Assembly (NCBI GenBank): GCA_963575745.1
Contig: CAUYUJ010000021.1
Coordinates: 1-64,000, forward strand
Reading direction: 5' to 3'
Source: Prorocentrum cordatum
Taxonomy: Eukaryota
DNA length: 64,000 bases
Both the position numbers and the translations under genes were made by a program. Below the pieces are notes generated by a model. It ran no database searches, was not told the origin of the DNA, and worked only from the letters and a program-made list of their open reading frames with translations. This document shows positions 8,215-63,695 of this stretch, piece after piece (within the stretch, counting starts at the first letter, position 1; the number at the start of each line of letters is the position of its first letter).

Positions 8215-8597
<383 letters not shown>

Positions 8598-8749
8598 GTC
8601 TCGGCTCGAGATTGCCCAGCACTCAGACCGCAGCCGCGACGCGAAGCGCCCCGCCTCGGAGTCAGACCCCCAGGCCTCGCGAGACCGGAGGGGCCCCAGC
8701 AGGGCCCTACTGATTCGCGTCACCTCTCCCCACCAGAGCGCCCGCAGCA

Positions 8750-11320
8750 ATGGCCCCCAGTAAGCCGGAGCGCCGTCGCTCTTCCAAGCAGCCCCCGAGC
8801 TCACGTCCTGCTGCTGAAGGGTCTCTCCTCCAACGCAAGCAGGACTGCATCGCAGCTTTCAAGCAAGCGGGGTCTGACCGCCCCACGGCCGCATACAACG
8901 GGCTTGCCGAGCTGAACGCGGACGAGCTCCAGGCAACGTACGACATGCACAAGACCAACACGAAGAAGCTCGGCAGTGCCTTGATCCGCATGTGCGCCGC
9001 CAACCAGATCAGCTACACGCTTGATCACCACCAGCGCAGCAAGCCTAAGCGCATTGGCGGTGACACATCACACCCACCAGCTGGGTCCGCACGTCTTCAG
9101 GCTGCGGACACCCAATTCATCGCCTTGGACCCGGCCTTTTGGAAGGTCCCTGTCCTCGCCGAACCCACATCTCCTGACGACGGCAAGACGTACAAGCCCA
9201 GTATCAGCCTCCACGACTACGAGAGCGGTGAACGGCTGCTGCAACACCACCTCGAGCAGGGTAAGCGTACCACGGGTCAGCTTGCGATTGCTGTCATGGG
9301 CCCAAAAAACGACAACTACGTCGGTACCGAGCTCGCCGTCCCCGTGCTGAAGCGTCACCCCAAGGCGCCCAAAGTGGTCCACACGCACGTCCCCGTGACC
9401 GTGTACCAGCTGGGCACCAAGGAAGTCGCCTGCACGGAAAAAGTAGCCGTCGCCACCATCGACCCTGCCGACCACGTATGCTGGATTCGGGCGACCATAC
9501 ATGAAACCGAGGCCATTGCCGCAGTCCCCTCCATGCATCAGGCCTTTGAGGACCAGTTCTCGGGAGGTGCCCCCGTAAACGGTGGTCCACGCGCCAAGGG
9601 TCCTTTCCGAGGAGACTCCGCTCCACAGGACAAGGCGCGCCAAAACCAAAAGCACAGGGAGTCCAAGAAAGACGCTCGCCGCCAGGAGCTCGATAGTCAG
9701 CTCCAGGACACCTTCAAGGCCCTCTTCCACGGCAACTTTAAAGCCGTCACCATCCTCGAACCCTGCAAAAGCCTAGGCAGGTTTGGATCGGGCGTCGGAA
9801 AGAGGTCCCTGGCTGCCACCTTCGGCGTCAGTCTTCAAGCGGTCGACAAGGTCTTGGCGGGATCAGGGCAACTCGGTGCCACCTACGACCTCAGCAACGT
9901 AGGTGCAGACGAGCCCACCGCAGACAAGTATCAGACCGTGTGGTTCCCTGAGGACCAGCCCATCACGATGGCAGATGCGTTCCAGAAGTCGGTGGATTTC
10001 AAGGCCCTGGGAGTCGTCAGGCACGGCAAGTCAGGCTTATTGGGGATCCGTGTTTCACGAGGGTCAGACGCCGCCAAGGCTGCTGCCGTCAGCATCCGCG
10101 GCTGCGAGGCCACCCTCGCCAAGACGCGCTACCGCATCACTGGCATTGCGGCACGCCACGCCACGCTGACCCAGCTCGCCAAGACTCTCACGGGCCCGTC
10201 CGTTAAATGGGACTGTGAGGTCTACCACACCGCCTGGGACCCAGCCACCGCGGCTCAGTTTGCCTTAGTGCGCGCCCACCGTCCCCCACTCACATATACG
10301 GTACAGGTCGCAGGGTGCCCCATCCCGTGGAGCATCACCGAGGCCCCGTTGGCTGAGGTGGTGCCGAAGCGGGACAACGTTACCATCGTCACGCCTACCA
10401 CCATCACAGAGCCTGTGACGCCGCCAGCCCGTGGTGGCGGCTTCAGCCCCGCCACGGGCGCACTCCTCACCAAAGCGGCCCAGAGCCCCTACCTCCACGA
10501 CCTCATGACTGCCACGCCCAAAGGCAAGGGCGTCGCACCGCTCCTGATCCCCAAGGAGGAGCCTTTAGCCAAGCGCCACCGATCCTCCAGCGGGAAACGC
10601 GACGCCACGCCGCACGCAAGATCACACGGCGCCCCAGGCCGCAGCTCCTCTGCACCCCCGCACGGCACGGACGGAGCCGCCGAGCAGACGGCCGTCCCAG
10701 GATCAGGTGGTCATGACCCTCGGCTTGGCACGGTGGCGGCTGAAGGTGGGGGCCACACCGAAGGGGACGCTGCCACAGCCGCCGAAGTACCAGGCGACGC
10801 TGACGACGTCGAGATCCTCTCATCAGGTGATGAATACAGCGTGGCTTCCCACGAACTCAACACCTTCGGCGAACGCTTCGCATCGGCCTCTAAACTGCCA
10901 GATGCCGCCACGACCCGCATCCAACACATGGAACAACAGCACGAGCTGCTAGCCAACACGGTGGATAACATGCAGGTTCAGCTTGCGGGCGTTCTCTCCT
11001 CCCAGGCCACACTCACGGAGCACGTCTCAGGGTTGGAACGGGGGCTTGCCACCGTCGTCACCCAGCAACAGACGGCAACCGCCGACGCCGCTGCACTGCG
11101 TGGCGACATCCAGGCCCTCCTCGGGCACCTCACGGGGGGCACCATCCACCTGCCACAAGTGGCCACTCTGGAAACTAAGAAGGAGGAAGCTGCATCAGTT
11201 GCCGATCCCGTGGCTGTCTGCGGGTGGATCGACCAGCCAGGCCAGGTCACCCCAGGGACGGGGCCCCCAGGGGCTGACAAAGGCAAAGACAAGGGTCGGG
11301 CCACCCAGGAACCCTATTGA
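8750..11320 (+). CDS. LINE ORF1 protein (856 aa) with C-terminal coiled coil
   Basis: Long ORF 5' of pol, intact in both copies; heptad-like TRIQHMEQQHELLANTVDNMQVQLAGVLSSQATLTEHVSGLE. Confidence 0.85.
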   Translation: MAPSKPERRRSSKQPPSSRPAAEGSLLQRKQDCIAAFKQAGSDRPTAAYNGLAELNADELQATYDMHKTNTKKLGSALIRMCAANQISYTLDHHQRSKPKRIGGDTSHPPAGSARLQAADTQFIALDPAFWKVPVLAEPTSPDDGKTYKPSISLHDYESGERLLQHHLEQGKRTTGQLAIAVMGPKNDNYVGTELAVPVLKRHPKAPKVVHTHVPVTVYQLGTKEVACTEKVAVATIDPADHVCWIRATIHETEAIAAVPSMHQAFEDQFSGGAPVNGGPRAKGPFRGDSAPQDKARQNQKHRESKKDARRQELDSQLQDTFKALFHGNFKAVTILEPCKSLGRFGSGVGKRSLAATFGVSLQAVDKVLAGSGQLGATYDLSNVGADEPTADKYQTVWFPEDQPITMADAFQKSVDFKALGVVRHGKSGLLGIRVSRGSDAAKAAAVSIRGCEATLAKTRYRITGIAARHATLTQLAKTLTGPSVKWDCEVYHTAWDPATAAQFALVRAHRPPLTYTVQVAGCPIPWSITEAPLAEVVPKRDNVTIVTPTTITEPVTPPARGGGFSPATGALLTKAAQSPYLHDLMTATPKGKGVAPLLIPKEEPLAKRHRSSSGKRDATPHARSHGAPGRSSSAPPHGTDGAAEQTAVPGSGGHDPRLGTVAAEGGGHTEGDAATAAEVPGDADDVEILSSGDEYSVASHELNTFGERFASASKLPDAATTRIQHMEQQHELLANTVDNMQVQLAGVLSSQATLTEHVSGLERGLATVVTQQQTATADAAALRGDIQALLGHLTGGTIHLPQVATLETKKEEAASVADPVAVCGWIDQPGQVTPGTGPPGADKGKDKGRATQEPY

Positions 11321-11479
11321 AGGTGCCTCAGAGAGCCTGCCTCAGCCCTCCGAGGAAGCGCCTTCAGAGGCATCTCTTCCCTCTTCGCGTCGTATCTCTT
11401 TCTTGTCATCTCATGTCTGTTTTGGCAGCAGCACGCGCAAGCTATCTGGTGTAGGGACACCCGTCATCTTGCAGGGGGC

Positions 11480-14400
11480 GTGATTGTTGCAATGTACATG
11501 AGCATGCAGGGGTATTTGAGGATGCGTGCTGACATGCAGCTTTTGGCTCATCGCTCGCGCCGCCCGCCAGGCCTCGCCATCATGTGGCGCCTTGCCTGCA
11601 GCCTGGCCCTCCCCTCGCTTGCTGGAGCACACCCGTCTTCAGGCGGTGCGCCCCAGCACGGAGGAGAGGTTTTCCTGCGACACGTTGAACGTGGGACTTT
11701 CTTCCACCTTAACGATGACAGCATCAACAAGTACGATCACTGCACCATTTTGGACCCGATCGTGAACAGCACCGCCGCCGCGGGTCCGTGCGGCAAAGGA
11801 TCGCTGGGCGCCATCGCAAGCGCATCCGCGCCCTCGTCAACTACGACACATGTTTCGCAGTCCACCCCCAGCGTGGCCTCGACCGTTGTGCAGCAGATCC
11901 TTGACGGGGACGTTGATACAGGCCAGGCACGCAGTGGCGGCTTCAGCCCCGCTGTCGTGCCCCGCTATAGCCCCACGGGTTTCACTACCCCCCTGTGTGC
12001 TAGGGGCGAACCCGAGGAGGACCCCGCTTTCTGGCACCTGATGATGATCCGCGCCCGGCTCATACCGTGCGCTGCGGCGTGGGCACCAGGTGAGGACCAC
12101 CAGGACGTGTTCTGGGCATGGCTCGAGGACTGCGTCCCGTACATCCTGGCGACGCTTCATCTGCCACAGTACGACCACCTTTTCCAGGAGGACTCTGAGG
12201 AGACAACCGACGCCCTGCGCCAGCGCACCGCGTTCGACATGTGCGAGGACATCTGGTATAGAGCGGGCCCCGACAGACAGCGCACAAACCGCAACCTCAC
12301 TCGTATCCAGGGCAGCCGCGAGTATTCCACCCGCTACTTTGGCCTCCTTCTGGAATACCAGGGTGCTCGTGCCCAGCTTGTCGGCCCTGAGGCTTTCACG
12401 GCACCTCTGCCGCCATACCTCTCACGGGCCCACGCCTTACTACCAAGAGACCTTCCTCCGCCCGACCAAGACGCCCTGGCGTACCTCGCGGATGCGATCC
12501 TGCACCGCCCGACAGACATGCAGCCGCTTGTCGAGGCGGAGCTCGCCGCGGCGCCGATGGAACCGCTTAACCCACCACCGCCAGCTGGCCTCGCCCAGCA
12601 CGCCACGGGTGATCAGGCCGCAGACGACCCCGTATCATGGCTGCTCCAGCACATCGCGGCCAGCGACATCAGCAACACACCCCTGGACTCGTTCCACGCG
12701 TCGGACGATATCAGCAACATATCCCTGGGCTCGGTCCATGTGGACGATAGCCAGGACGACATGGAAACCCAGGATCGTGACGGCACGACACCACCAGGCG
12801 ACACGGCCCAGCGTGACCGTGACAGCGAACCCCACTTAGGGCACACCCCGTCGCACAGCAGTCCGCCCAACAACTCGGCCCAGGCCGACCCCTGCGCACA
12901 GCTCAACGACGCTGAAGGCGCCACTGCCGCCGACGCGACAAGCCATGCCACTGCATCGCCAGCTCATACCAGCCTGCGCAGTGGCGGCGTCAGCCCCGCT
13001 GCAGCACTGGCTGGACCTGGACATCCCCAGACCGCAGGTGGCAGCACCACGCCCCGCACCCTTGTCTGCCGTGTTAACGTGACCGACTCCAATCCCAGCG
13101 TCATTGACCACTGGCAGGCCGACATCGACAACGACCCCATCGACGACGAGTACCCAGATGCCAGCGGTTCCCACGAGGCCCAGCACAGCGCAGCGGCATC
13201 ACGACACTGTGGCTGCCTCATTTGCCTCTTTGTGGCCACGTACGCCATCGTGATAGCAATGCCGTACAAGGACCAGATCGATGGGCACTTGCCGACACCG
13301 AGCCGAGACCCCAGCTACCGACAACGACGACGACGTGAAGCGGCGGCACCAGGCCCATCTGTGCTTACTACATCCCGACGCACAACGGCATACAACGTCA
13401 CGTCCGCATTATGGGCTACTCTCAAGTGGACCAGCGTCAAACTCAGAGATATCGTCTCGGGCGGAGCCAGCGCAGTCGGGGTCGGCCTCGGGGGTGTCCT
13501 GAAATGGGCCAGCGGCAAACTCGGGGCTATTGCCACTGGCGGAGTGGTGTGCGGTCTTCTACTCGTCGGCGCCAAACTCCTCGCTCAAGGAGCCGTCGGA
13601 CACGTAGGAGCCCGCATCTGTGCGCGGGCCCTGGACTCATCCACGGCCCAGTGGTGCCTCCGCTGTTGCCAACCGAGCAGGAGGCCGCGTGATGAGGCCA
13701 CATACACAATGCCGCGCACGCTTGCCGACGAACACGAGGACCAGCACGTGCACTCACTCCGACATCCGCTGCTACAGGAACACTACGCCGCAGCAGTTGC
13801 CGCCGCAGTCGCCGATGTCACCACCGCCACCACCGCCGCCATCGTCGAAGTCACTGCCGCCGTATCGCGAGCCTCGTCTGCCACACCACGATCGACCAGC
13901 CCGTCTCCGCGAGACGGCTCCAAGAGCGGCGCGGCCTACGGTAACCTACCGACTAATGAAGATGCCACAGCACACGGCAGCGACACCGAGGCAAGGGAAA
14001 CACGTGAGTACACCCACGTTAGCCCGTGGTCCATCTTCCGACATGCTGATGCTCGTGGTTCCTCTCCCGACACGGACACCCAACCACCACGACGGCGAGC
14101 ACGCTATGCATCACCCGCTCAGGCCCTGGTATGCCCTACACAACCCCCAAGCCACCGACGCGCAACTTACGCAACACTATCCAGCGCGACCCAGCGGTCC
14201 CCGTGCCGCCGACGAGCATCCTCAACGCCCTGTACCAAAACGGCTTTGCGCTTGGTAACAGTGGCGTGTCTACAGAGGACATCAAAGACGCTCTGCGACT
14301 CCACGACCATCCTCGATTCACCCATGATCTAACACTCCAAGCGCTGGGGCCGTGGACTGACATCATGCAGAGGCCCCCGAACCGCCTCACTTGGGTGCTG

Positions 14401-17400
14401 GAAGACTCGGGCGGGAACTCAGGCGAGACGATTTTCCCCTACCTCACGTGGGACCTCCGCCAACCCACCACCGACGCGCCCACTGTCTTCTGGCATGGGA
14501 CCCGCGGCGACCTTGCGGCCCGTCTCGCTGCCAGCGGAGGGCACCTCTTGCCAGGCCCCCGCCGTGAAGCGAAGGGTCGAACTGGCACCAACGTTGGCCG
14601 CACGTACGTGAGCGTGCACCCTTCGCTGGCCGCGTGGTACGCAATGCCGCCCCACCCGCCCTACAGCCTCGAAGACGACACCCTCGCGTGGGGACCCATC
14701 GCGCTCTGGATGTGCGAGGCCACCCAACCACCGCGCGGTGAGAACAGGCGCAACTTCGTGAAAGGGGAGGCCCACGGAGCGCGTCTCATTTACCCTCGGG
14801 TCCTGAGCCTCCTCATCCGCATGGACTGGTGCGCCCCCACAGAAGCTGCCTCCAGGTGCCGTGCCCTACCACATGCCTATGGCATGGGCGACTGTGCGCA
14901 CGCCCTCCACATCGCTGGCTACGATCATCCAGATCTCCGTGAGGCGGCTGAAGCTCACGACCAGGAAGCTAGCACCAGGCGCAGGCTAGACATCGCGGCA
15001 GCGTGGCCACCGCCGCAGGCACTATACTCGCCAGAGGCAGCGCGAGTATGGGCCAAACAGCACTACGACACTGAAGCAGCCACCAGGGACGACCCTAACC
15101 AGCCCCGCCCACGCGTCTCGCTTCGCAAGCTCCAGCTGGACCCGAAACCACTCATCGACCTGGTGTACACTGGCTTGCAAGCCGTCCCCGTGCGGGGGCA
15201 TCCCGACGCACGCGAGTCGCGCCCCAGCGGCTCCAGCCCTGGGGCCGCGTCTGGCCCACCGCGCACTTACCAGTCAGGTGCAGCCCTGGCGCACAGTCCA
15301 GACCGCTCATCGACGACATCAGGAGCCGACGACCGCCGTACGCCTTCCCTCATCAGCGCGGCCGCCGCCCTCGCCCGAGGCCACGCCCGCCCACGGCGAT
15401 CCGCCTCCCGTTCGTCACGGCAGAGTGGCGGAAACTCCACCTCGGACAACAGCGACATCGAGACGTGGGAGCACATCGAGACGGAAGAGGAGCCTACTGC
15501 CTACCACGTCCTCGCCTACCACGTCCGCGATGTGCGGGCCCGTGTCAATGCCCCTGGCATCGAGGTCTGGCTTGACCCTGGTGATCACCACGACGGCGCC
15601 TACTTACCGTGGGGGACGACCGTCATGGGCCATCGCGTCATCGACCCTGCGGTGGCGGGGCGTGACGGCTGGGTCATCCTCCACCACGACCACGGCGACA
15701 CCACTACCAAGCTCTGGGTACCGACTCAAGTCCACGTCAAAGCGGACGACACCTGGCGCACGGTCATGGTACCAGCGGACATGGGGCCCCAGTGGATCGA
15801 GCGCCATGCCGAGGACGCTCGCCTCCCCGCCGAGGTTGTCCGCACTACAGGCCAATCCTGGTTTGCCGACGTCTGGCCCTTGTGGGATCGCCCCCGACCT
15901 CACCCAGACGACCCAGGCACAAACGAGCATGCGCTCCCGCCCCTACCAGGACGCTGGTCCTGCCTACAGTGCCGATTCCAATGCTGTCAGTACTGTGCGG
16001 CTCGCCGCAACACGCAGCTCGGCACCTCGGGCCAACCAACGTGCCCAGACTGTGCCCGCAGCGGACTGCGTGCACTTATGGACTGGTCCACGGACTACTC
16101 TTGCAACAGTTGGACGTGTGCATACAGCACCGACAACAGGGACTCCGACACATGCTGCCTGTCCAGCAGGTGCCCCCATCCGCCCAGTCCACACAGCCTG
16201 CTCGACGTCCGTGCCACAGGGATGCCGCCGCACATCCTTGCCCGCCAATACGGCAACGCGCCAGCCCACCACGACCTCAAGGAACCCCCCCGAGCGCCTT
16301 CAGGCCCCGGGGGGGAGCCTCCACAACCAGGCCAAGCAGGTTACCAGGGTCAATGGTACTTTCCTCCGAGGCCGCGGCGCATCCCCAGACAGGGACTGCC
16401 TGACGGCACGAGGCGGCCACCTGGGTTCACAGGAACGGGGATGCCCGAAGAACCGTCCCCCGACCAACCTCTCTGGAGGGAAGGCTACGTGCTCTTCGGC
16501 CCCCACCAGGCCCTCAAGGAGGAATTCACCTTCAACAAGACGGTCCGCCGACCCTACTCCCTAGCCATCACCAACATGTACAGGGACCGTGTCACGGTCA
16601 GGACCGTCTGCGAGTCGATCGCCGAGCGCATCCACACTACCCGCACCCGCTGGCGAGATGTGGTACTGTACTGGGACGCCGAGGGTGGTCCTGGGCCTCA
16701 AGCTCTCGACTATGACATGCGACTCTGCGACGCCATGGTGAGCCGTGCCACGACCGAAGCCGAGCTAAACCACGACCGCAGCAACCGTGGTAGTTTCTGT
16801 CTCTATGGACCAGCGCACCAGCGAGCTGTAAACATCACGGCGATCTCCGAGCCGCAGAACATCGACTACACGGAGCATGTGCGGCGATACTCACCCGTAG
16901 GGGAGACCTACCCAGACCACGCCTTCGAGCACGTCTATCGGGGCTGGCAGCGGCCCGACGTGCCCACCATCCTCCCCGACACCCGCCCCCTCTCGAGAGC
17001 CGACCAGCAGCGATATCAACAGCACCAGCAGCGCATTCAGCAGCGCGACCAACGCGACGCAGGACAGCCGAGCACGCCACGCTACCGCTCCCCCGCGCGC
17101 GCCCCGACTGGCGGCAGCACGGCCTACGGCGGGGCTGCCGCCTATCACCGTGGCCCCATTGGCGCCAGGCCCGCGGCGGCTGGAGCAGCCGCCTCCAGTT
17201 ACGGCCATGCCCCTCACGCCAGGGTGCACCCAGCGGTCATCGGCTACCCGCGTGCACTCGTGCAGGCCCCCCCACGGGCCACTTCGCCCGTGCCAGGGTC
17301 CACGCGCGCCTGGGGCCATTACCCAGGCCGCCATGACGGCACCCCCAGCAACCAGCCCGCAGTGGTAACCCCTGCGGCTTCAGCCCAGGGGGCTGCAACA

Positions 17401-20400
17401 AACCGTGGCAGGACAGGGCGCCCTGAAGGATGGCGTGATGCGAACGTGCGTGCTTGGCAACCGCGCCAGCACACGCCCCCGCCAAACGTGGCTGCAGCGC
17501 TGCGCCCTGCCCAGGCAAAACCTGCCCCACCTGAGCGGGAGAGGCAGCCGCTCGTCCCGCTCGTCCTCACGTACACCCAGGCGCATCACAGCGCCTCCCC
17601 GCGGCACAGCGAGGGAAGCGCCCATCACGTCAGCCCCCGCCCCGACGCTGTCGACCCTGACCAGGCCACAGCCACGGCGGAGGGCGGCACAAGCGGCTCC
17701 CGCCAGCCCAGCCCATCACCCTGCGCGGCGCCGATCCGATCCCCGAGCAGGGCGGATTCCGAGCGCGCTAATGCCCAGGCGACCTCGCCACGCGACCGCC
17801 ACACGGGCGGGCGCGTCCCGCGCAGCAGGTCCTGCAGCCGCCACAGCTCACGCAAGGCCCCAGGGAGCTCCACGAGCTCGCCGCCTCGCGAGACTCAGGC
17901 TGATGGCCGAGCCCCCGAAGTGGTGCCACGCTTCGGTGCCAGCGCCATCGAACCTGGCCAGGTCGACCTCGAGCCGACGCCGTCCACGGACCACGAGCTG
18001 CCGCTGCCCACCCGCGTGGTCGTCCCCATCGACGAGGCGCCGACCTTCGACCCGTTCAAGAACAAGTACCGCGTCAAGGACCTTGCGGCGGGTTTCGGCG
18101 GCGGCTCACCGCTCTCACCTCAGAGTCGGGGCGGAGCCCCCGCCACCTCAGCCGCTGCCGCGGCAGCGGTGGCCCCGCGTGGAGTCAGCCCTGTCCGCAA
18201 CGCGGGCCTCACGGCAGCGGGCATGGACGAGGCCCAGCGCCAGGCCACCGACCGCGCTGCTCGAGCTGTTCCACCAGATGCTGCTCATCACGGTACTGAC
18301 GGGGCGGGCGCGCCGCCGCAGGACGGACCAGCGGTGTCGCGTGCGCAGTATATGCGCGTGCGTTGCGCCGCTGCCGCGCCGAGCCGCCGCCGCTGGTTCG
18401 CTTTTGCTTTTGTGTTCGGCAGGACGGATCGAGGAGTCGCCTCCCTCTCCCTCTGCTGCCGTCTCACCTCTCCTCCCCTCGTCCCCTATGGTACAGGAGT
18501 GAGGAGGATTTTTCGAGGCAGTTTTACTGATGTTTATGAACCCCCCCTGGCGCAGTGCCGACCATGTCTCGCATATACTTCTGGCCTGACGGCGGCTTCA
18601 GCCCCGGTCAAGCCAATCCACAGGAACGCCATGAGCTCCTACTGTGGCCAAGCCTTCTACCTGGGTGAGGGTCAGGCTGACCTCCACCGTGCGGGGCGTG
18701 CCAACCCCAGCTCCACCGATGGAGACGGACCAGGTCGCTCCATACACCTCGTCAGCCTAAACATCACCAGTCTCTCAGCGAACTGGCCAACCATCACCGC
18801 TCTTGGTGTCGACCACAACGCCGCAGTCATAGCACTGCAGGAGACCCGACATGCCAAGCCGACCAGACAAGCCATCGCTACCAGCGCCGCCAATCCACAC
18901 CACGGGGGATACCACGCCAGTCTGGGACCTGACCTGGATCTGGCGCGAGCCCAGCGCAGAGCTGCCCACGGCGGCACAGACCACACCGTCGTGGGCAACA
19001 CTGGCGCCTCGGGAGGGGTCGCCATCCTCTCTAAGGATGCCATTGTCGACTCCACTGTCGACGACACTGCGCCCTGTATCGTCACCCTCAAGGCCAAGAA
19101 AAGATGGCACGAGGCCTTCCTCCCGCTCTGCACTCAGCACCGCCGCAGGCGGCGACGAAACAACCACGGGCCCGCTGGGATCTACATAGCGAGCCTCTAC
19201 GGGGTAGCTGGAGGAGACAGCACAGACCTGTTTCGGCTCGCTGACTGCGCCGCCGCAAGGGTCGGCTCAGCCCCGTATTTCATCTGCATGGACGCCAACA
19301 CGAACATCGACGACAATCCACACCTGCTGCACATGATGCAGCACGGATGGTTTAACGTCGCTGAGGGCACACCAGACCACACCATGCACACATACGGCAA
19401 TATCCCTGACTGGGACCGCGTCACCAAGTGCCCCCGCACTTCGCGCATCGATTATATCATTGCCAACCAAGCGGCGCGATCCCTTGTCACCGACTTCTGC
19501 TATCTGCGCGACTTGCCAGCGAAGTCCCATGTTGGCCTGCAGGTCACGCTCGACCTCAGTCGCCTCGACCATACGGCCCGACGCCTTCTTGCCCCCACGC
19601 CCTACCCCCCTAACGATGGAGCTCACGAGGGCCACGAACTGCAGGCATTAGGGACCCTCATCGCAGGGCGATACCAGGACCGCATGGAGCAGGCCGACAC
19701 ACGCGACGATGTGGAACGCATGTTCGCCCTGGCTAACGAGGCCAGCCATGAGTACCATCTCACCCGTCTGCGCGACCTGCCACCTCCACCGCCAGACCAC
19801 CCAAAAAAGAAGCCCCCCACCATGCACGGGCTCACGCCCACGTTCGAGGAGCGACCCGTTGTCCCCCGCGCCTTTCCCACCTACGGAGCTTCCACGATAC
19901 ACATGAACCGCCTGCGCAAGCTCCATCGGCAACTTTGTGAGCTTCGCTTCATCGGACAGCACCATCATTTAGACTGCCGTGCCATCCCGCCGTACCTGGC
20001 GCAGCGCATCGACTGCACGTGGACCGCGGCCCGCCTCCTCTGTCACAAGCTGCGCCCCACGGTCCTCCTGGCCTTTCCCGAGGCCTGGACCCCTGACGAG
20101 CCAGCACCTCACGGAGAGCATCTTGACTGTCTGATCCAAAACCTCGACTCAGAGCTGGCGCGACGTGCAAACCGTGCCAAAGCTGAACGCATCAAGATAT
20201 GGGCTGAGGGCGTCCGCGAGCCAAGCGGGCGAGAGGCGGCCATATACGCACGGGCTGCTGACAACTCGCCCACGGCGTATCTCCGCACGCCTACCACTCC
20301 CGACGATACACAACTCCACTGCGACACCAACGCCTTCAAACCTGACAAAGCTAGCACGGACGATAGTGACGCCGACACCGAAGCTGGCGGCTTCAGCCCC

Positions 20401-23400
20401 AGCGACGGTAGTTCGCCCGACACGGACAACGACGAAGACCACACTTGTGAACCACCACCTGCACAGGTCCCCGACATTCTCCCTGCCAACGCCATTGTTG
20501 CTAATACCAAAGACATGCTTAAGCTCATGGTCGACACCTGGGAGCCCATCTTGGGCAGGTACCGCGCCCGTGCAGGACATGACGCCGAAGCCATGCCGAC
20601 GTGGGCTGACTTCTACGACGAGTACCGACAAGAGCTGCCTACGCCATCACCAGCTACCCCTTTCCACCTCACCGACGACCAACTCATCCACTTTATTCGC
20701 ACCCGTTCACCGCGCCGTGCGGGGGGACTGGACGGCTGGACTACTAAGGAGGCTAAGGAGTTACCCGACGACATCCTTCGCCTCTTCGCCAGCGTCTTAC
20801 GCGCTATGCAACGCACTGGCACCATCCCAGAACCCCTCCTTCACGTGCCAAACCCGTGCCTCCGAAAAGGCCGAGGCGAACTCCCAACGGACCAACGACT
20901 TCTCTCGGTGCTTTCCGTTTGGATGTATGCGTGGGAAGCGCCAGCTTACCGCAGCCTCACGGACTGGCGGAAAGGATGGACCCACGCCACGAGCTTTGGC
21001 GCTGTTCCCAAAGCTACCATTGGGGACGTCAGCACCTCTCTCGCCCTGCGCATCGAGCACGCCAGGGCTTTACTCCTGCCCTTAGCTGGGGCTGCCCTTG
21101 ACCGACAGAAGTGTTTCGACTACCTCATCACGGACATCTGCCTTAACCTTGCGCTTCACGCGGGGTGCCCCCAAGACATCGTTACTGTCCGCAGAAACTT
21201 CTACAGTCGCCACAAACGCTACATCCGCATGAACGGAGCGTACTCTAAGGACTTGGCCAGGACCAACGGTCACCTCCAGGGAAGCTCATGGTCCCTGGAC
21301 GACATCAAGCTGCTCATGTGTGTGTGGACAAAGAGACAGCATCGATACGTTCCTCGATCACTCAGCACTACCTTTGTTGACGACAGCAACTCCACTACCC
21401 ACACCGCGTCTGAGTTGCAGAAATCTCTTGACGAAACCGCCAAGTTTGATCGATTCTCAGGTCAACGCATTCACCCTGGCAAAGTGGCGGGGTGGGCGCT
21501 CACCGACGAGCTTCACGCCGCCGTTACCCAGCTCACTCTGGCGGAACGGCCCTTACGCGTGGTCGACTCCTTCAAGCTCGTCGGGAGTTACATCAACGCC
21601 GAGGCAGCGCCGGCTCCAGCCGCGCTTAACCTCACGGCCACCGCTGACGCCCGTGTACGGAGGGCGACTAGTCGCCTGCCGCGCATTGGCAAGCTCCCAT
21701 CGCCGATGCTTATTAAGGCGCGGCACGCCCGTTCCCTTGCTGCCAGCGTCTGTACCACGGGCACCGACATTCAAGCCCCATCAGGCCCCGCCAAAACTGC
21801 CTACAACCACGCCCTCAAGGCGGCTATCCGCCCCAAGGGGAACAAGTGGGTCGAGTTTTGGACTCTCATGGCCGTGTGCGTCCCAGGACACGCCCTGGAG
21901 ATTGACGCCATCACGCAGCGTGAAGCTTTCCTGTGCCTGCGGCGACAGGTTAACCGCGACGTTACACTCTGCGGTCTCGTCAGGGATCTCCAACACCACG
22001 TCCAGACCCTGTTTGGTGGAGGACCTGTCGGACGACTCGTCCAGTCGCTCCAGCAGCTCCGTTGGACCTGGCCCACATTTGGCATCATGTACGACGACTG
22101 GGGCTGCCAGATCAGCTGGCTGAACTTACCCCAAAACGCCTTCCTTCACATGCTGCGGGCCTCACAACGCAGAGCCTTTCTGAGGAGGATCAAGCCACGG
22201 CGTCACGACCTTGGATACCTTGCCTCTGTCAGACAGGGCCTCGACCTCTTCGCCAGCACGTGGCTCGCCCGAACGAAAGGAGCAGCCAAATGCACTGCCT
22301 GGCAGCTGGCGCTCCTCCTGAACTACCTGTCGGGCGGGGACCACACCCAACAGCGACGATCCCGATCAAACACGTCAGCCGACCCCAGCCCCATCTGCCG
22401 ATACTGCGACGAGGAAGAGGAAACTCAGGAGCACACTGTCCGCGACTGCAAGTGCTGGGCCCGAGAAAGACTCCCTCTCACCACCCTCATCAGTGACGAG
22501 CAGTGGGCCCGTCTCCCGCCGCACACAAGACACTGCGGACTCTTCGATGAAGACCCAGCCCTCCTCGACCTGCAGGCCGACCTCGCGAGGGACCCGCTAC
22601 CTCAGCCCATACCGCGGCCCCCCCCTGAGGGAGATCCTGCGGCTTCAGCCCAGGACTCCTACACCACCTACCTTGACCACGACACTGGTTGGACATGGGT
22701 CTACGCTGCCACGGACGGTGCATGCACCAACCAAGCCATCCCATTGCTAGCACGAGCGGGCTACGGCGTCTACTACGGCATCGACCACCGCATGAACTAC
22801 AGTGCACGCGTTCACGGCATTACGCAGAACGCCAGCTTGCGGAGACCCTCGCCATTGTCCATCTCACGGCATGTGCTGAACGGCCCGTGCACGTTTTCGT
22901 GGACAACCAGGCGGTGGTCGATGGGGTTCCAAAGCATCATCGACGGACACTCAGCACCGCAGGGCACGCACGTGGAGCTCTGGGAAAAGATCCACCGATG
23001 CGTTATGGCCAAGCCCAACATGTTCCGCGTCGAGAAAATCGCAAGCCACCTGGGAGACATGGGCATCGACCTCGGGCTCATCGGGCCCATTGCGGAGGAG
23101 TTCAATCGTCAGGCTGACGCCCTCGCCACAATGGCGGCACGCACTCACAACCTTCCAGACGACATTGTCGAAGCTGCCAAAACACGACATCGCCAAGCGA
23201 CCGTGCTTCATGGGGTCGCTGTCGCCATCTACGAGCGTAGACACCGCACACTCCCGCTCCCACACCGCAGGGCTGGGTTTACAGCTGCGGAACTCAACAA
23301 AATGGAACCAAACCCCCTGCTGTCGGACCAGGCACCACCCGCGGCTGGACCAGACATCCCACAGAACCCGGACGAGCTCTGGGCCGAGGCCCAACGGGCG

Positions 23401-24462
23401 ATATTCGACGAACAGGAGGACGACCCTTTCGGCTTCGGCGGGGGACTTGACTTCCTAGGCGACGGGCCAGCCAGCGCCAACCTTGCCCCGTCGGGCATCC
23501 GCACGACGCCCTCGACTCCGCCACCGAGAGCGGCACCGCACCCACATGACGACGCCGCTCACCTCCAAGACGCTGACGAACAGGAGGACGACCCGTTCAG
23601 CTTCGGTGGGGGATCGGACGCCTTGGACGACGGCCCAGTCAGCGACAACCCTGCCCCGTCGGGCAACCTCTCGACGCCTACCGCGACTCCGTCTCCGAGA
23701 GCGACATCGCCCCCATATGATGATATCGGTCACCGCCAAGACGCCGACGACGACCTGGGTGACCCCCGCGGACTGAGTGGCATAGACGACGCACCGCCGA
23801 CACCCCACGCTGCCGACCATGCCGCCCTACCGAGACGCCACCCTACTACGCGGCTGACCTCAGAGCCCTCGCACGGCACCATGATTGGTCCCACCGCGCA
23901 AACCACTCCGCCCCCCCACCAGCGGCAGGCCGCGGGGGCGGCTTCAGCCCCCCCGCAGGGCACTGAACCAGACAGGCCCTCGCACCCCGTCCACGCTTCC
24001 ACCGTTGCTGAGCGAGAGGATGCGGCTCTTCCGACCTCTCGGGGCGTGGCCCTAGCGGCTCCAGCCCTGGGGCCGCGTGTTCCCCTCCAGTCACCTTTCA
24101 AGGGTGACGGACGACAGCATACAGGGTGCCGTACTACGCTAGTCCACCATCTGGACAGGCGTACCGAGGACCTCGCCCCTGTCACGAGGCCCGCGGCCGC
24201 TGGCACTGAGCAGCCACCCCTCACCGACCGCGAAACCGAGCTGTCCCAGGCTATGGCCGCTCTCCAGCAGAGGTGTGTTGCTCTCGCCGCGGACCTCGCC
24301 GCCGCCCAAGCTCGCCAAGGCCCTCTACTCCAGCGCCTCCACAGCGCCGGGCGAGCCTTCGCCGAGCTGCTCACGCCCTCGCCCGATGGTGCCGTGCCGT
24401 CACTCACCATCCAAGCTATGCTGTCATCGTTCCGCGGCGCTCCACCTGGTGCCCCGCGCTAA
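11480..24462 (+). CDS. LINE ORF2 polyprotein, copy 1 (split by a 16-bp deletion at ~14118; compensating -1/+1 indels at ~22832/22923)
   Basis: APE: VSLNITSL, ALQETRH, ICMDAN, SRIDYII, KSH (~18750-19550). RT: LDRQKCFD, GHLQGSSWS, FVDD (~20700-21600). Zn finger CRYC-X8-H-X4-C (22396-22449). RNase H: ATDGAC..NRQADALA (~22700-23130). Copy 2 reads through the 14118 break in one frame. Confidence 0.9.
23404..23745 (+). repeat. Internal ~171-bp tandem duplication in the ORF2 C-terminus (DEQEDDPFxFGGG)
   Basis: GACGAACAGGAGGACGACCC at ~23407 and ~23575; also present in copy 2. Confidence 0.85.
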
Positions 24463-25003
24463 TCTCCTCCTTTCTGCCTGCCCGTGAGTACGCGTGGCTC
24501 CGCGTCCACGGTGTCAGGGCGTGGGGGCGGGGGGTGCCCCGTCACTGCGCGCCGCTTTGCGGCCAAGCGCCCAACTGGCGGTCTGCCAAGCCGCCTAGCC
24601 ACGTGTCAGCACGTCGCCTTTCTTGTTGGGGCCTCTTTCTTTACGCGGTCTGACAGGTGAGATCATCATCGTCTGTCCGCCGTCTGTAGCGTCTGTCGCA
24701 CTGCGCCGGGGGAGGGGTTTTTTGTTGCCCGCCCTCGTATCTAAAGGCTGCACCGCCGCAAATAGTGTTTGCGAGTTGTCGCACCGCAGTGCGCCTCGCG
24801 GACGGACCCTGGTCCGCCTACTTGTCCGCTCTCTCTCTCTCTCTCTCTATAGTCTCGGCTCGAGAGTGCCCAGCACTCAGACCGCAGCCGCGACGCGAAG
24901 CGCCCCGCCTCGGAGTCAGACTCCCAGGCCTCGCGAGACCGGAGGGGTCCCAGCAGGACCCTACTGATTCGCGTCACCTCTCCCCACCAGAGCGCCCGCA
25001 GCA

Positions 25004-27574
25004 ATGGCCCCCAGTAAGCCGGAGCGCCGTCGCTCTTCCAAGCAGCCCCCGAGCTCACGTCCTGCTGCTGAAGGGTCTCTCCTCCAACGCAAGCAGGACT
25101 GCATCGCAGCTTTCAAGCAAGCGGGGTCTGACCGCCCCACGGCCGCATACAACGGGCTTGCCGAGCTGAACGCGGACGAGCTCCAGGCAACGTACGACAT
25201 GCACAAGACCAACACGAAGAAGCTCGGCAGTGCCTTGATCCGCATGTGCGCCGCCAGCCAGATCAGCTACACGCTTGATCACCACCAGCGCAGCAAGCCT
25301 AAGCGCATTGGCGGTGACACATCACACCCACCAGCTGGGTCCGCACGTCTTCAGGCTGCGGACACCCAATTCATCGCCTTGGACCCGGCCTTTTGGAAGG
25401 TCCCTGTCCTCGCCGAACCCACATCACCTGACGACGGCAAGACGTACAAGCCCAGTATCAGCCTCCACGACTACGAGAGCGGTGAACGGCTGCTGCAACA
25501 CCACCTCGAGCAGGGTAAGCGTACCACGGGTCAGCTTGCGATTGCTGTCATGGGCCCAAAAAACGATAACTACGTCGGTACCGAGCTCGCCGTCCCCGTG
25601 CTGAAGCGTCACCCCAAGGCGCCCAAAGTGGTCCACACGCACGTCCCCGTGACCGTGTACCAGCTGGGCACCAAGGAAGTCGCCTGCACGGAAAAAGTAG
25701 CCGTCGCCACCATCGACCCTGCCGACCACGTATGCTGGATTCGGGCGACCATACATGAAACCGAGGCCATTGCCGCAGTCCCCTCCATGCATCAGGCCTT
25801 TGAGGACCAGTTCTCGGGAGGTGCCCCCGTAAACGGTGGTCCACGCGCCAAGGGTCCTTTCCGAGGAGACTCCGCTCCACAGGACAAGGCGCGCCAAAAC
25901 CAAAAGCACAGGGAGTCCAAGAAAGACGCTCGCCGCCAGGAGCTCGATAGTCAGCTCCAGGACACCTTCAAGGCCCTCTTCCACGGCAACTTTAAAGCCG
26001 TCACCATCCTCGAACCCTGCAAAAGCCTAGGCAGGTATGGATCGGGCGTCGGAAAGAGGTCCCTGGCTGCCACCTTCGGCGTCAGTCTTCAAGCGGTTGA
26101 CAAGGTCTTGGCGGGTTCAGGGCAACTCGGCGCCACCTACGACCTCAGCAACGTAGGTGCAGACGAGCCCACTGCAGACAAGTACCAGACCGTGTGGTTC
26201 CCTGAGGACCAGCCCATCACGATGGCAGATGCGTTCCAGAAGTCGGTGGATTTCAAGGCCCTGGGAGTCGTCAGGCACGGCAAGTCAGGCTTATTGGGGA
26301 TCCGTGTTTCACGAGGGTCAGACGCCGCCAAGGCTGCTGCCGTCAGCATCCGCGGCTGCGAAGCCACCCTCGCCAAGACGCGCTACCGCATCACTGGCAT
26401 TGCGGCGCGCCACGCCACGCTGACCCAGCTCGCCAAGACTCTCACGGGCCCGTCCGTTAAATGGGACTGTGAGGTCTACCACACCGCCTGGGACCCAGCC
26501 ACCGCGGCTCAGTTTGCCTTAGTGCGCGCCCATCGTCCCCCACTCACATATACGGTACAGGTCGCAGGGTGCCCCATCCCGTGGAGCATCACCGAGGCCC
26601 CGCTGGCTGAGGTGGTGCCGAAGCGGGACAACGTTACCATCGTCACGCCTACCACCATCACAGAGCCTGTGACGCCGCCAGCCCGTGGTGGCGGCTTCAG
26701 CCCCGCCACTGGCACACTCCTCACCAAAGCGGCCCAGAGCCCTTACCTCCACGACCTCATGACTGCCACGCCCAAAGGCAAGGGCGTCGCACCGCTCCCG
26801 ATCCCCAAGGAGGAGCCTTTAGCCAAGCGCCACCGATCCTCCAGCGGGAAACGCGACGCCACGCCGCACGCAAGATCACACGGCGCACCAGGCCGCAGCT
26901 CCTCTGCACCCCCGCACGGCACGGACGGAGCCGCTGAGCAGACGGCCGTCCCAGGATCAGGTGGTCATGACCCTCGGCTTGGCACGGTGGCGGCTGAAGG
27001 TGGGGGCCACACCGAAGGGGACGCTGCCACAGCCGCCGAAGTACCAGGCGACGCTGACGACGTCGAGATCCTCTCATCAGGTGGTGAATACAGCGTGGCT
27101 TCCCACGAACTCAACACCTTCGGCGAACGCTTCGCATCGGCCTCTAAACAGCCAGATGCCGCCACGACCCGCATCCAACACATGGAACAACAGCACGAGC
27201 TGCTAGCCAACACGGTGGGTAACATGCAGGTTCAGCTTGCGGGCGTTCTCTCCTCCCAGGCCACACTCACGGAGCACGTCTCAGGGTTGGAACGGGGGCT
27301 TGCCACCGTCGTCACCCAGCAACAGACGGCAACCGCCGACGCCGCTGCACTGCGTGGCGACATCCAGGCCCTCCTCGGGCACCTCACGGGGGGCACCATC
27401 CACCTGCCACAAGTGGCCACTCTGGAAACTAAGAAGGAGGAAGCTGCATCAGTTGCCGATCCCGTGGCTGTCTGCGGGTGGATCGACCAGCCAGGCCAGG
27501 TCACCCCAGGGACGGGGCCCCCAGGGGCTGACAAAGGCAAAGACAAGGGTCGGGCCACCCAGGAACCCTATTGA
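25004..27574 (+). CDS. LINE ORF1 protein, copy 2 (856 aa)
   Basis: Differs from 8750..11320 at only a few residues. Confidence 0.85.
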   Translation: MAPSKPERRRSSKQPPSSRPAAEGSLLQRKQDCIAAFKQAGSDRPTAAYNGLAELNADELQATYDMHKTNTKKLGSALIRMCAASQISYTLDHHQRSKPKRIGGDTSHPPAGSARLQAADTQFIALDPAFWKVPVLAEPTSPDDGKTYKPSISLHDYESGERLLQHHLEQGKRTTGQLAIAVMGPKNDNYVGTELAVPVLKRHPKAPKVVHTHVPVTVYQLGTKEVACTEKVAVATIDPADHVCWIRATIHETEAIAAVPSMHQAFEDQFSGGAPVNGGPRAKGPFRGDSAPQDKARQNQKHRESKKDARRQELDSQLQDTFKALFHGNFKAVTILEPCKSLGRYGSGVGKRSLAATFGVSLQAVDKVLAGSGQLGATYDLSNVGADEPTADKYQTVWFPEDQPITMADAFQKSVDFKALGVVRHGKSGLLGIRVSRGSDAAKAAAVSIRGCEATLAKTRYRITGIAARHATLTQLAKTLTGPSVKWDCEVYHTAWDPATAAQFALVRAHRPPLTYTVQVAGCPIPWSITEAPLAEVVPKRDNVTIVTPTTITEPVTPPARGGGFSPATGTLLTKAAQSPYLHDLMTATPKGKGVAPLPIPKEEPLAKRHRSSSGKRDATPHARSHGAPGRSSSAPPHGTDGAAEQTAVPGSGGHDPRLGTVAAEGGGHTEGDAATAAEVPGDADDVEILSSGGEYSVASHELNTFGERFASASKQPDAATTRIQHMEQQHELLANTVGNMQVQLAGVLSSQATLTEHVSGLERGLATVVTQQQTATADAAALRGDIQALLGHLTGGTIHLPQVATLETKKEEAASVADPVAVCGWIDQPGQVTPGTGPPGADKGKDKGRATQEPY

Positions 27575-27733
27575 AGGTGCCTCAGAGAGCCTGCCTCAGC
27601 CCTCCGAGGAAGCGCCTTCAGAGGCATCTCTTCCCTCTTCGCGTCGTATCTCTTTCTTGTCATCTCATGTCTGTTTCGGCAGCAGCACGCGCAAGCTATC
27701 TGGTGTAGGGACACCCGTAGTCTTGCAGGGGGC

Positions 27734-39700: not shown

Positions 39701-40870
39701 CTCAACAAAATGGAACCAAACCCCCTGCTGTCGGACCAGGCACCACCCGCGGCTGGACCAGACATCCCACAGAACCCGGACGAGCTCTGGGCCGAGGCCC
39801 AACGGGCGATATTCGACGAACAGGAGGACGACCCGTTCGGCTTCGGCGGGGGACTTGACTTCCTAGGCGACGGGCCAGCCAGCGCCAACCTTGCCCCGTC
39901 GGGCATCCGCACGTCGCCCTCGACTCCGCCACCGAGAGCGGCACCGCACCCACATGACAACGCCGCTCACCTCCAAGACGCTGACGAACAGGAGGACGAC
40001 CCGTTCAGCTTCGGTGGGGGATCGGACGCCTTGGACGACGGCCCAGCCAGCGACAACCCTGCCCCGTCGGGCAACCTCTCGACGCCTACCGCGACTCCGT
40101 CTCCGAGAGCGACATCGCTCCCATATGATGATATCGGTCACCGCCAAGACGCCGACGACGACCTGGGTGACCCCCGCGGACTGAGTGGCATAGACGACGC
40201 ACCGCCGACACCCCACGCTGCCGACCATGCCGCCCTATCGAGACGCCACCCTACTACGCGGCTGACCTCAGAGCCCTCGCACGGCATCATGATTGGTCCC
40301 ACCGCGCAAACCACTCCGCCCCCCCACCAGCGGCAGCCCGCGGGGGCGGCTTCAGCCCCCCCGCAGGGCACTGAACCAGGCAGGCCCTCGCACCCCGTCC
40401 ACGCTTCCATCGTTGCTGAGCGAGAGGATGCGGCTCTCCCGACCTCTCGGGGCGTGGCCCTAGCGGCTCCAGCCCTGGGGTCGCGTGTTCCCCTCCAGTC
40501 ACCTTTCAAGGGTGACGGACGACAGCATACAGGGTGCCGTACTACGCTAGTCCACCATCTGGACAGGCGTACCGAGGACCTCGCCCCTGTCACGAGGCCC
40601 GCGGCCGCTGGCACTGAGCAGCCACCCCTCACCGACCGCGAAACCGAGCTGTCCCAGGCTATGGCTGCTCTCCAGCAGAGGTGCGTTGCTCTCGCCGCGG
40701 ACCTCGCCGCCGCCCAAGCTCGCCAAGGCCCTCTACTCCAGCGCCTCCACAGCGCCGGGCGAGCCTTCGCCGAGCTGCTTACGCCCTCGCCCGATGGTGC
40801 CGTGCCGTCACTCACCATCCAAGCTATGCTGTCATCGTTCCGCGGCGCTCCACCTGGTGCCCCGCGCTAA
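27734..40870 (+). pseudogene. LINE ORF2, copy 2, disrupted between APE and RT by a +1 indel (~36343) and an A-rich insert (36503-36642)
   Basis: ORFs 27734..36397 and 36923..40870 align to copy 1; RNase H is intact here (QNAQLAETLAI..VFVDNQAV). Confidence 0.85.
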
Positions 40871-41235
40871 TCTCCTCCTTTCTGCCTGCCCGTGAGTACG
40901 CGTGGCTCCGCGTCCACGGTGTCAGGGCGTGGGGGCGGGGGGTGCCCCGTCCCTGCGCGCCGCTTTGCGGCCAAGCGCCCAACTGGCGGTCTGCCAAGCC
41001 GCCTAGCCACGTGTCAGCACGTCGCCTTCTTGTTGGGGCCTCTTTCTTTACGCGGTCTGACAGGTGAGATCATCACCGTCTGTCCGCCGTCTGTAGCGTC
41101 TGTCGCACTGCGCCGGGGGAGGGGGTTTTTGTTGCCCGCCCTCGTATCTAAAGGCTGCACCGCCGCAAATAGTGTTTAGCGAGTTGTCGCACCGCAGTGC
41201 GCCTCGCGGACGGACCCTGGTCCGCCTACTTGTCC

Positions 41236-41236
<1 letters not shown>

Positions 41237-41266
<30 letters not shown>

Positions 41267-41281
41267 GTTTCTCTCTCTATT

Positions 41282-41345
<64 letters not shown>

Positions 41346-41363
41346 TCTTCTTCTTCTTCTTCT

Positions 41364-41409
<46 letters not shown>

Positions 41410-41464
41410 TCCCCACCCCCCCTCTCTCTTCGCTTCCTCTCTCTCTCTTCTCCTTCTCATCTCT

Positions 41465-41511
<47 letters not shown>

Positions 41512-59139: not shown

Positions 59140-62850
<3,711 letters not shown>

Positions 62851-63344: not shown

Positions 63345-63488
63345 GATAGTACTAATGGTGATGGCGGCGACGGTGGCAGTGGCAGCAGTAGTGGTAGTAG
63401 TAGCAGTAGTAATAATAATATTAGTAGTACTAGTAGTAGTAGTAATAGTAGTAGTAGTCGTAGTAGTAGCAGTAGTAGTAGTACTAGC

Positions 63489-63520
<32 letters not shown>

Positions 63521-63582
63521 CAGTAGTAGCAGTAGTAGTAATAGTAGTAGTAGCAGTAGTAGTAGCAGTAGTAGTAGTAGTA

Positions 63583-63632
<50 letters not shown>

Positions 63633-63653
63633 ATAGTAGTAGTAGTAGTAGCC

Positions 63654-63695
<42 letters not shown>

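Follow-up and report, generated by a model that had tools for sequence, protein, structure and literature searches.

How the proteins of a long interspersed nuclear element (LINE) select and coat their own RNA, known as cis preference, is a long-standing question. The specific recognition signals known in LINEs are single structures at the 3′ or the 5′ end. Multiple dispersed packaging signals, on the other hand, have been reported for STNV, the hepatitis B virus (HBV) pregenome and coronaviruses. Other small hairpins of relevance are the iron-responsive element (IRE), with a bulged C, a 5-bp upper helix and a CAGUGN hexaloop; the integron attC site, a bacterial single-stranded DNA recombination substrate whose structure is conserved and whose extrahelical bases mark the strand; and the bacterial REP/RPE-type elements, which are small mobile palindromes. 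The MS2-type packaging signal is described as an xxYA loop with a 5′ bulged A that occurs in many dispersed copies with variable stems (PMC6281560), and dispersed signals in the 30-kb coronavirus genome as seeding nucleocapsid ribonucleoproteins (RNPs) (10.64898/2026.06.18.733228). A third report describes a 3′ tail stem-loop of stringent-type LINEs that is recognised by their own ORF2 protein (PMC4176376). Here we analyse a 64,000-nucleotide stretch of DNA from Prorocentrum cordatum (contig CAUYUJ010000021.1, positions 1 to 64,000; the window), which contains two head-to-tail copies of a LINE whose two open reading frames (ORFs) carry a family of small hairpins. This family is real, statistically overwhelming and structurally defined.

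In each hairpin (s01 to s15; Table 1), a lower stem whose sequence varies is followed by a bulged C on the 5′ side, a 3-bp G-N-C/G-N-C helix and, at the top, a UYCA tetraloop. At every one of the 15 sites the bulged base is a C, placed 3 bp beneath the loop, which reads T, then T or C (12 and 3 sites), then C and A without exception. The middle pair of the upper helix is G:C at 11 sites, C:G at 2 and U•G at 2. An earlier inspection of the window without database searches, referred to below as the sequence-only reading, had proposed this very fold, with flips in the upper stem and tolerance of G-T pairs. The fold is indeed the minimum-energy structure at all 15 sites, most of them with longer imperfect lower stems, the sequences listed at its 15 coordinates are all in place, and G-T or T-G pairs outnumber A-C mismatches by 11 to 3 over the sites. 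Two entries of that list had to be adjusted. The element does have 15 sites, all present in copy 2, but copy 1 has 14 instead of 15 because a 16-nt deletion at 14118 removed s06, breaking the ORF2 reading frame as well. The site at 12978 (s05) is genuine, but its loop is mutated to GTCA in copy 1, whereas position 12989 within this loop is a T in all contigs from four other sequencing runs (40 of about 2,200 differences between copy 1 and the contigs of other runs were listed individually).

Table 1. Coordinates of the hairpins, the LINE copies and their reading frames in the window
Feature	Position	Copy 2 position	Strand	Remarks
s01	9080..9114	25334-25368	+	core CGTCTTCAGGC; 33.7 bits; folds
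s02	10426..10460	26680-26714	+	38.7 bits
s03	11622..11656	27876-27910	+	33.2 bits; ~50 nt behind the ORF2 ATG
s04	11926..11960	28180-28214	+	35.1 bits
s05	12973..13007	29227-29261	+	31.8 and 40.9 bits; loop GTCA in copy 1, intact in copy 2
s06		30372..30406	+	copy 2 only; core CGCCTTCAGGC; 35.1 bits; intact in L126
s07	15216..15250	31486-31520	+	loop TCCA; 38.1 bits
s08	16283..16317	32553-32587	+	34.4 and 26.5 bits; loop mutated to TTCC in copy 2
s09	17363..17397	33633-33667	+	35.2 bits
s10	18581..18615	34851-34885	+	33.0 and 22.9 bits; loop mutated to TTCG in copy 2
s11	20376..20410	36784-36818	+	34.1 bits; T:A to C:G double change in L127
s12	21599..21633	38007-38041	+	loop TCCA; 30.1 bits
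s13	22628..22662	39036-39070	+	34.6 bits
s14	23927..23961	40335-40369	+	38.7 bits
s15	24044..24078	40452-40486	+	loop TCCA; 38.0 bits; 117 nt behind s14
LINE copy 1	8575..24848		+	~16.25 kb, between (CT)n runs; 98.4-99.1% identity to copy 2
LINE copy 2		24829..41256	+	head-to-tail with copy 1; 138 bp extra at 36504-36641
ORF1	8750..11320		+	~856 aa from ATG; long C-terminal helix; no family match
ORF2	11582..24462		+	ATG at 11582; same frame as ORF1, single TGA between

From the 15 sites we derived a covariance model (R1), which was applied with filters off to both strands of the window and of four related LINE contigs from metagenomes (L001 to L004), 73,196 bases in all. Of its 29 matches, with scores from 22.9 to 40.9 bits, copy 1 contains 14 and copy 2 contains 15; the score then falls to 16 bits for the next best match. 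All 29 lie on the plus strand, within the LINE and inside ORF1 or ORF2. The 31 kb of window DNA outside the LINE gave no match above 16 bits, and none of the 29 falls in the 3′ untranslated regions (UTRs; 24463-24830 and 40871-41256). The string GGCTYCAGCC occurs 21 times in the window, 20 times on the plus strand, always within the two LINE copies, and once on the minus strand, against an expectation of 0.69 and a maximum of 3 in shuffled sequences. A scan for hairpins with at least 8 Watson–Crick pairs, blind to the sequence of the loop, singled out the same structure: the combination of a TTCA loop, a 3-bp upper helix and a 5′ bulge was the commonest class with 9 hairpins, while every other class had at most 2. 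The sense-strand location given in the sequence-only reading stands, and the covariance scan that it had put forward as a check gave no minus-strand match of 22.9 bits or more, with shuffled sequences falling short of the observed density.

Synonymous codons were permuted in three open stretches of copy 1, keeping the protein and the codon usage (500 trials). Mean counts after permutation were 0.56 for cores (at most 3) and 0.03 for full hairpins (at most 1), compared with 13 cores and 11 full hairpins observed in copy 1. The bulged C falls on codon position 1, 2 and 3 at 1, 9 and 5 sites, respectively, and s07 and s15 have 28 of 30 nt in common yet are translated in different frames. These results, together with the stem covariation described below and the fixed orientation, establish that the hairpins are a nucleic-acid structure independent of the peptide, in agreement with the previous claim that they are not a peptide motif. 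A peptide motif and chance were considered as sources of the hairpins and ruled out by the codon-preserving shuffles and the excess of GGCTYCAGCC.

Over the 15 sites, sequence conservation is limited to positions −1 to +11 (G, bulged C, G-N-C, T-Y-C-A, G-N-C), which is what a recognition site looks like, and no second conserved motif was found within 80 nt on either side. The lower stems differ in sequence yet pair, as had been noted before: 76% of the lower-stem cells are paired against 53.9% in shuffles (0/500 shuffles reach 76%), 13 of the 15 lower-stem pairs have changes on both sides, and pairing drops to 35-52% when the partner is slid by one to three columns. Since the sites are paralogous, the pairing count shows that each is its own palindrome but is by itself no proof of selection.

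Changes at one and the same site could be followed in four short contigs (L125 to L128) of a single record (genome G001), which are 92-97% identical to the window LINE. In L127 the lower stem of s11 reads GCCGG/CCGGC instead of GCTGG/CCAGC, a T:A to C:G double change of which one side is synonymous and the other replaces Ser by Gly. In the window the eighth lower position of s01 is an unpaired G...A, which is replaced in L125 by a C...G pair; each of the two changes is non-synonymous, and L125 differs from the window at only three places in the 71 nt compared. L126 has an intact s06, while s11 of L128 has decayed, with a GTCA loop and a C•C mismatch, as expected for dead copies. Within the window, loop mutations private to one copy affect s05 in copy 1 and s08 and s10 in copy 2. 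Four of the few private mutations within hairpins (12989, 32568-32571, 34866-34869 and s11 of L128) concern loop position 1 or 4, two being T>G, one A>C and one A>G; small as these numbers are, dead copies may have a mutational hot spot in the loop. The record G001 (L124 to L129) is titled as a Myxococcales metagenome-assembled genome, and its contigs of this eukaryotic LINE, at least four in number, are probably mis-binned contamination. The NCBI hypothetical proteins P0168 and P0172 derive from it. Protein queries retrieved no LINE DNA from G001 beyond the four contigs, and G001 was the only one to match among 401 genomes of its class, the other 400 giving nothing.

The hairpins are evenly spaced, about one per 1.1 kb. 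From s01→s02 onward the intervals are 1346, 1196, 304, 1047, 1135, 1108, 1067, 1080, 1218, 1795, 1223, 1029, 1299, 117 and 1290 nt, the last one reaching into the next tandem copy and the position of s06 in copy 1 being taken from copy 2. Their coefficient of variation is 0.36 over 15 intervals, and when 15 points are placed at random, such evenness is reached in only 6 of 100,000 trials (p ~6e-5). Twelve of the 15 intervals measure 1000-1400 nt, a range picked after seeing the data, which 0 of 100,000 random placements reproduce. Duplication of an internal 1-kb segment as the source of the spacing is ruled out by comparison of the element with itself, where only the hairpins (24-32 nt) match, apart from a C-terminal tandem repeat and a repeat in the 138-bp insertion. 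The former lies at the ORF2 C-terminus (39815-40158) and has units of ~170 nt with 80% identity; the latter is a 58-nt repeat inside the copy 2 insertion (36504-36641).

Comparison with related elements shows that the hairpins are a recent, lineage-specific gain. The LINEs L001 to L004, retrieved with a single-protein query, are 67-82% identical in the reverse transcriptase (RT), and L001 is 53% identical to the window over 1,327 aa, yet none of the four has an R1 match above 12 bits or a TYCA hairpin. Compared with L001, the window protein is longer by 11 residues at s11 and by 5 at s13, in both cases exactly at the hairpin. The s12 hairpin arose by substitution within a pre-existing Ala/Pro stretch. 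In closer relatives, where persistence was read at the protein level only, the s01 peptide SARLQ[A/T/P]AD and the s02 peptide GGG[F/S]SP are both kept in ORF1 homologs of 88, 72 and 59% identity amid otherwise variable linkers, the s01 peptide being lost at 46%. Likewise, the s11 peptide GGFSP is kept in a 75% relative and the s10 peptide AASAP in a 90% relative. The variable residues match the freedom of the RNA model, F/S corresponding to the loop Y and A/T/P to the middle pair of the upper helix. As far as comparison allows, the hairpins are located in variable linkers that separate conserved blocks. The hairpin-free relatives have structures of a different kind: L001 and L003 have in common a perfect hairpin with an 8-bp stem and a CCAA loop (L001:1103-1122, L003:277-296) and an 11-bp bulged stem with a CTCAT loop (L001:1217-1244, L003:390-419), and L001 contains two further 8-bp hairpins with a CAA loop. 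These may be structured sites of that lineage's own.

Several sites resemble each other beyond the core. s04 and s05 are identical over 24/24 nt, s02 and s05 match at 94% over 32 nt and s07 and s15 at 93% over 30 nt; three or four pairs in all have 24-32 nt at 87-100% identity, whereas the other sites have only an 11-13-nt core in common. New sites most likely arose, to judge from these pairs, by copying of an existing hairpin into a tolerant linker, the stems then diverging by paired changes. Neither the two 16-kb copies nor the four other contigs showed a new hairpin peculiar to one copy, and copying should therefore be rare relative to the age of the copies. A protein query found no related locus in viral contigs, and a 15-nt core pattern gave more than 119 single matches there, on both strands, that were attributed to chance and set aside. 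The sequence-only reading contains neither the even spacing and the lineage-specific gain, both new here, nor the copy-paste likeness between sites.

Our leading, if tentative, explanation is that a protein encoded by the element recognises the LINE RNA at each of these hairpins, which would work like the dispersed packaging signals of RNA viruses. It builds on the structure, orientation, independence from the peptide, covariation, spacing and lineage-specific gain described above; that RNA is the active form, that a protein binds, which protein this is and to what purpose are the steps that we infer. A single protein would read the constant apical part, which runs from the first lower G:C pair through the bulged C and the G-N-C/G-N-C helix to the UYCA loop, and the lower stem would need only to pair. 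The reader would most likely be encoded by the element, either ORF1p, the natural candidate, or an RNA-binding part of the 4,300-aa ORF2 protein. With one site per 1.0-1.35 kb, protein binding could be nucleated all along the 16-kb RNA; the bound protein would coat the RNA or condense it into an RNP and identify it as the template of the element itself. New hairpins would be copied into tolerant protein linkers and retained where they fill a gap. Loading of ORF1p, export and protection from silencing, the roles put forward by the sequence-only reading, may likewise be what such sites provide.

Several observations weigh against recognition by an element-encoded protein. No binding protein was found: neither ORF1 nor the two pieces of ORF2 searched with it matched a Pfam family, a PDB sequence search gave nothing below E 0.28, a search of the ESM Atlas returned no usable match, and no RNA-binding fold was recognised in ORF1 by any of these. 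An AlphaFold2 model of ORF1 made from 5 sequences was unusable (predicted local distance difference test, pLDDT, 38), with confidence only for a bundle of helices at the N-terminus and one long helix at the C-terminus. Similarly built LINEs (53-82% identity) do without the hairpins, which are therefore not essential to this kind of element. Packaging signals of viruses are usually tens of nt apart, compared with ~1.1 kb here. The same-site evidence comes from four short contigs of one record, one of them with a decayed s11, and paired changes could also result from templated (quasipalindrome) mutation without selection. As to the strand, the folding energies of sense and antisense 35-mers have nearly equal sums and sense is the more stable at 8/15 sites, with the same outcome for RNA and for DNA parameters; antisense cDNA could therefore be the active form. 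Strand assignment from folding energy was dropped, there being no difference with either parameter set. The excess of G-U over A-C is modest and could stem from a C-to-T bias of the sense strand together with the extension rule.

The question of the strand bears directly on a first alternative, which we regard as unlikely, in which antisense first-strand cDNA becomes active after RNase H has removed the RNA, the hairpins starting or organising second-strand synthesis every ~1.1 kb or protecting the single strand. The palindromes fold on both strands, antisense being the more stable at 7/15 sites, the element encodes an RNase H, and even spacing along a very long template would fit multiple initiation. 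Orientation is equally well explained: being fixed in 29/29 matches, it means that the recognised features are asymmetric, and these could be the C-bulge and UYCA loop of the sense strand or the G-bulge (here on the 3′ side) and TGRA loop of the antisense strand. However, s01 and s03 (as well as s01 of L125) have a U•G pair in the middle of the apical helix that turns into a C•A mismatch in antisense, in line with the 11 to 3 ratio of G-T to A-C over the sites, and an internal hairpin provides no 3′ end. We also know of no eukaryotic priming system that reads hairpins, which counts against such a role. RNA is thus more likely to be the active form. A strand asymmetry is also apparent in the divergence of the element. 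Between copy 1 and the contigs of runs X1, X2, X7 and X10, the sense strand shows C>T at 321-397 and T>C at 307-370 places, with G>A (117-151) and A>G (129-176) ~3x rarer. Purifying selection at synonymous NNY sites may lie behind this, or else a mutation process specific to one strand.

A second alternative keeps RNA as the active form and replaces the element's own protein by a host factor, such as an export or stability factor serving a long unspliced RNA, an RNA-modifying enzyme with hairpin loops as its target, or a ribosome-pausing device acting between protein domains. The evidence for structure and selection is the same as for recognition by an element-encoded protein, and a location in variable linkers between conserved blocks would suit this scheme too. 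Three of the 15 sites read C-UCCA, which we take to be the loop motif of the 5-methylcytosine (m5C) writer NSUN6, but 12/15 loops are UUCA and not UCCA. Relatives from similar samples are without the motif, an absence for which co-evolution with a protein of the element accounts more readily than use of a conserved host factor does. Moreover, export or stability elements need not come in 15 evenly spaced copies, and while disordered regions offer many permissive places, tolerance of the linkers alone gives no even spacing. We consider recruitment of a host factor improbable.

Copying of the sites raises the further possibility that the hairpin is a selfish or neutral mini-palindrome of ~25-35 nt, propagated within the element, for instance by template switching of the RT, its arms being kept by templated mutation without benefit to the LINE. 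That the likeness between s04 and s05, s02 and s05 or s07 and s15 is restricted to the hairpin, that s11 and s13 coincide with the 11-aa and 5-aa extra stretches relative to L001, and that the sites are recent and lineage-specific would all follow. Random insertion, on the other hand, yields neither even spacing nor a single orientation (29/29). All sites are common to the copies that cover them, with no private new hairpin, and copies decay by loop mutations and mismatches that are not corrected (s05, s08, s10 and s11 of L128). In addition, the s01 and s02 peptides persist to 59% identity, and the 31 kb of non-LINE DNA in the window contain no such hairpin. A mere mini-palindrome is in our judgement doubtful, to about the same degree as a host factor.

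A more far-reaching version of recognition by the element's own protein, which we think quite unlikely, has the 16-kb RNA forming a regular particle, as beads on a string or a closed shell, in which each of 15 evenly spaced, high-affinity operators would seat one oligomer of an element protein. This would amount to an independently evolved virus-like packaging, perhaps with exit from the cell, and also draws on a signal-peptide-like and two membrane-span-like segments of ORF2. Finally, the hairpins might be processing sites, either short excised introner-like segments, for which the hairpin-forming intronic elements of a marine parasitic dinoflagellate (PMC7789003) offer a precedent, or targets of a structure-specific nuclease cutting the RNA into ~1.1-kb units as the even spacing could define them, but this is very unlikely, given that the reading frame continues through all hairpins in three phases, that the flanking protein aligns in frame with relatives and extra stretches are whole codons, and that those elements measure 120-240 nt and have direct repeats, against 20-35 nt, a 4-nt loop and no direct repeats seen here.

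The host element is a LINE, with an APE endonuclease and an RT in one ORF, a simple-repeat tail and no long terminal repeats (LTRs), none having appeared in the self-comparison. This assignment follows from the domains found in ORF2 and from its relatives, of which P0004 has clear Exo_endo_phos, RVT_1 and RNase_H domains. In ORF2 itself the endonuclease (~18808-19479) matches Exo_endo_phos with 32.3 bits (Pfam cut-off 24.5), the RT (~21046-21495) is divergent with a weak match to RVT_1 (E 0.039), and the RNase H (~22700-23200) is likewise a weak match. The segment between 22832 and 22923 within the RNase H aligns poorly with L001; some contigs of other runs carry an extra A behind 22832 and are without the base at 22923, and 22832-22927 of copy 1 seems to be a local double frameshift. 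A profile-free search gave 1,699 relatives, 601 of them at E <= 1e-10, and one cluster, whose representative is ~30% identical to the query, includes a protein of Symbiodinium microadriaticum. The residues encoded by 14122-18700 had 2 matches in a search among shorter proteins only. Homologs of ORF1 were found at 46-88% identity. Near-identical sequence is present in marine, estuarine and freshwater plankton metagenomes, and the word depth of the element is very high in two organism-labelled sequencing runs. At ~16.25 kb, it is ~3x the length of a usual LINE.

The junction of ORF1 and ORF2 (11318-11640; copy 2: 27572-27894) consists of one TGA and a 261-nt spacer in the same frame. From the ATG at 11582, ORF2 begins with a signal-peptide-like segment (MWRLACSLALPSLAGA), and two hydrophobic, membrane-span-like segments follow at residues ~540-560 and 644-665; a membrane or secreted N-terminal part, if this is what the residues encode, would be unusual for a LINE ORF2. 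Both ends of each copy are flanked by (CT)n, which is also the tail of the element. The surrounding microsatellite extends over 8430-8595, 24829-24850 and 41226-41500, with (CT)10 at the junction of copies 1 and 2, and this setting together with the head-to-tail arrangement suggests either that (CT)n is a preferred target or that insertion into the tail of an earlier copy was tail-primed. Elsewhere in the window, 58000-64000 is a compositionally distinct segment, in which the G+C content falls from ~64% to 42-46% and long ORFs without Pfam match lie on both strands. A Pfam search with 18 other ORFs of the window gave nothing useful.

Fifteen near-identical, evenly spaced hairpins in coding sequence would offer a natural, sequence-defined system for studying how LINE proteins recognise RNA. 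If recognition by an element-encoded protein is true, it extends the principle of dispersed packaging signals from viruses to non-LTR retroelements. The hairpins may also explain how a LINE of three times the usual length is mobile at very high copy number, and the hairpin could, with its partner, be developed into an orthogonal RNA tag of the MS2 or PP7 kind.

Among the known systems, the IRE to which the hairpin had been likened in the sequence-only reading does have a single 5′ bulged C below an apical helix, but the 3-bp helix and UYCA tetraloop found here do not fit it. Rfam contains no family matching at E up to 1, apart from a sub-threshold match to mir-598 on the minus strand at s05 (28.3 bits against a threshold of 69) that was taken as chance. 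With the attC sites the hairpins have in common that structure prevails over sequence and that one-sided extrahelical bases tell the strands apart, but there is no recombinase or cassette structure here. Mobile palindromes, namely the REP/RPE type and the hairpin introners of Amoebophrya (PMC7789003), are similar in being short units at new, partly translated places, and near-identity over 24-32 nt of some site pairs may recall them. They differ from the present hairpins, which have a single orientation and even spacing, are confined to one LINE within the window, have no direct repeats that we could see, and have stems that diverged by paired changes.

The stringent-type LINE tail (PMC4176376) is alike in that a LINE-encoded protein reads a hairpin on its own RNA, as is proposed here. 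There, one hairpin stands in the 3′ UTR beside the tail repeat, whereas the 15 sites found here all lie inside the ORFs and none in the 3′ UTR, which rules out a stem-loop of this type. The sequence-only reading knew of no such hairpins in LINEs, and searches of open-access papers and bioRxiv, whose results were judged by titles and abstract openings, also gave no description of repeated internal hairpins in a LINE. Its comparison with the MS2 operator holds in part. The UYCA loop fits the xxYA motif (PMC6281560) at 15/15 sites and the bulge is on the 5′ side, but the bulged base is a C located 3 bp below the loop, in contrast to the A located 2 bp below it in MS2. As with dispersed packaging signals in general, many stem-loops in coding sequence present one apical motif on variable stems. 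The present set differs from them in that its host is a non-LTR retrotransposon instead of a virus, that the apical parts are nearly identical and not degenerate, and that the spacing is an even ~1.1 kb. The hairpins look like a set of protein docking sites such as have not so far been reported for LINEs.

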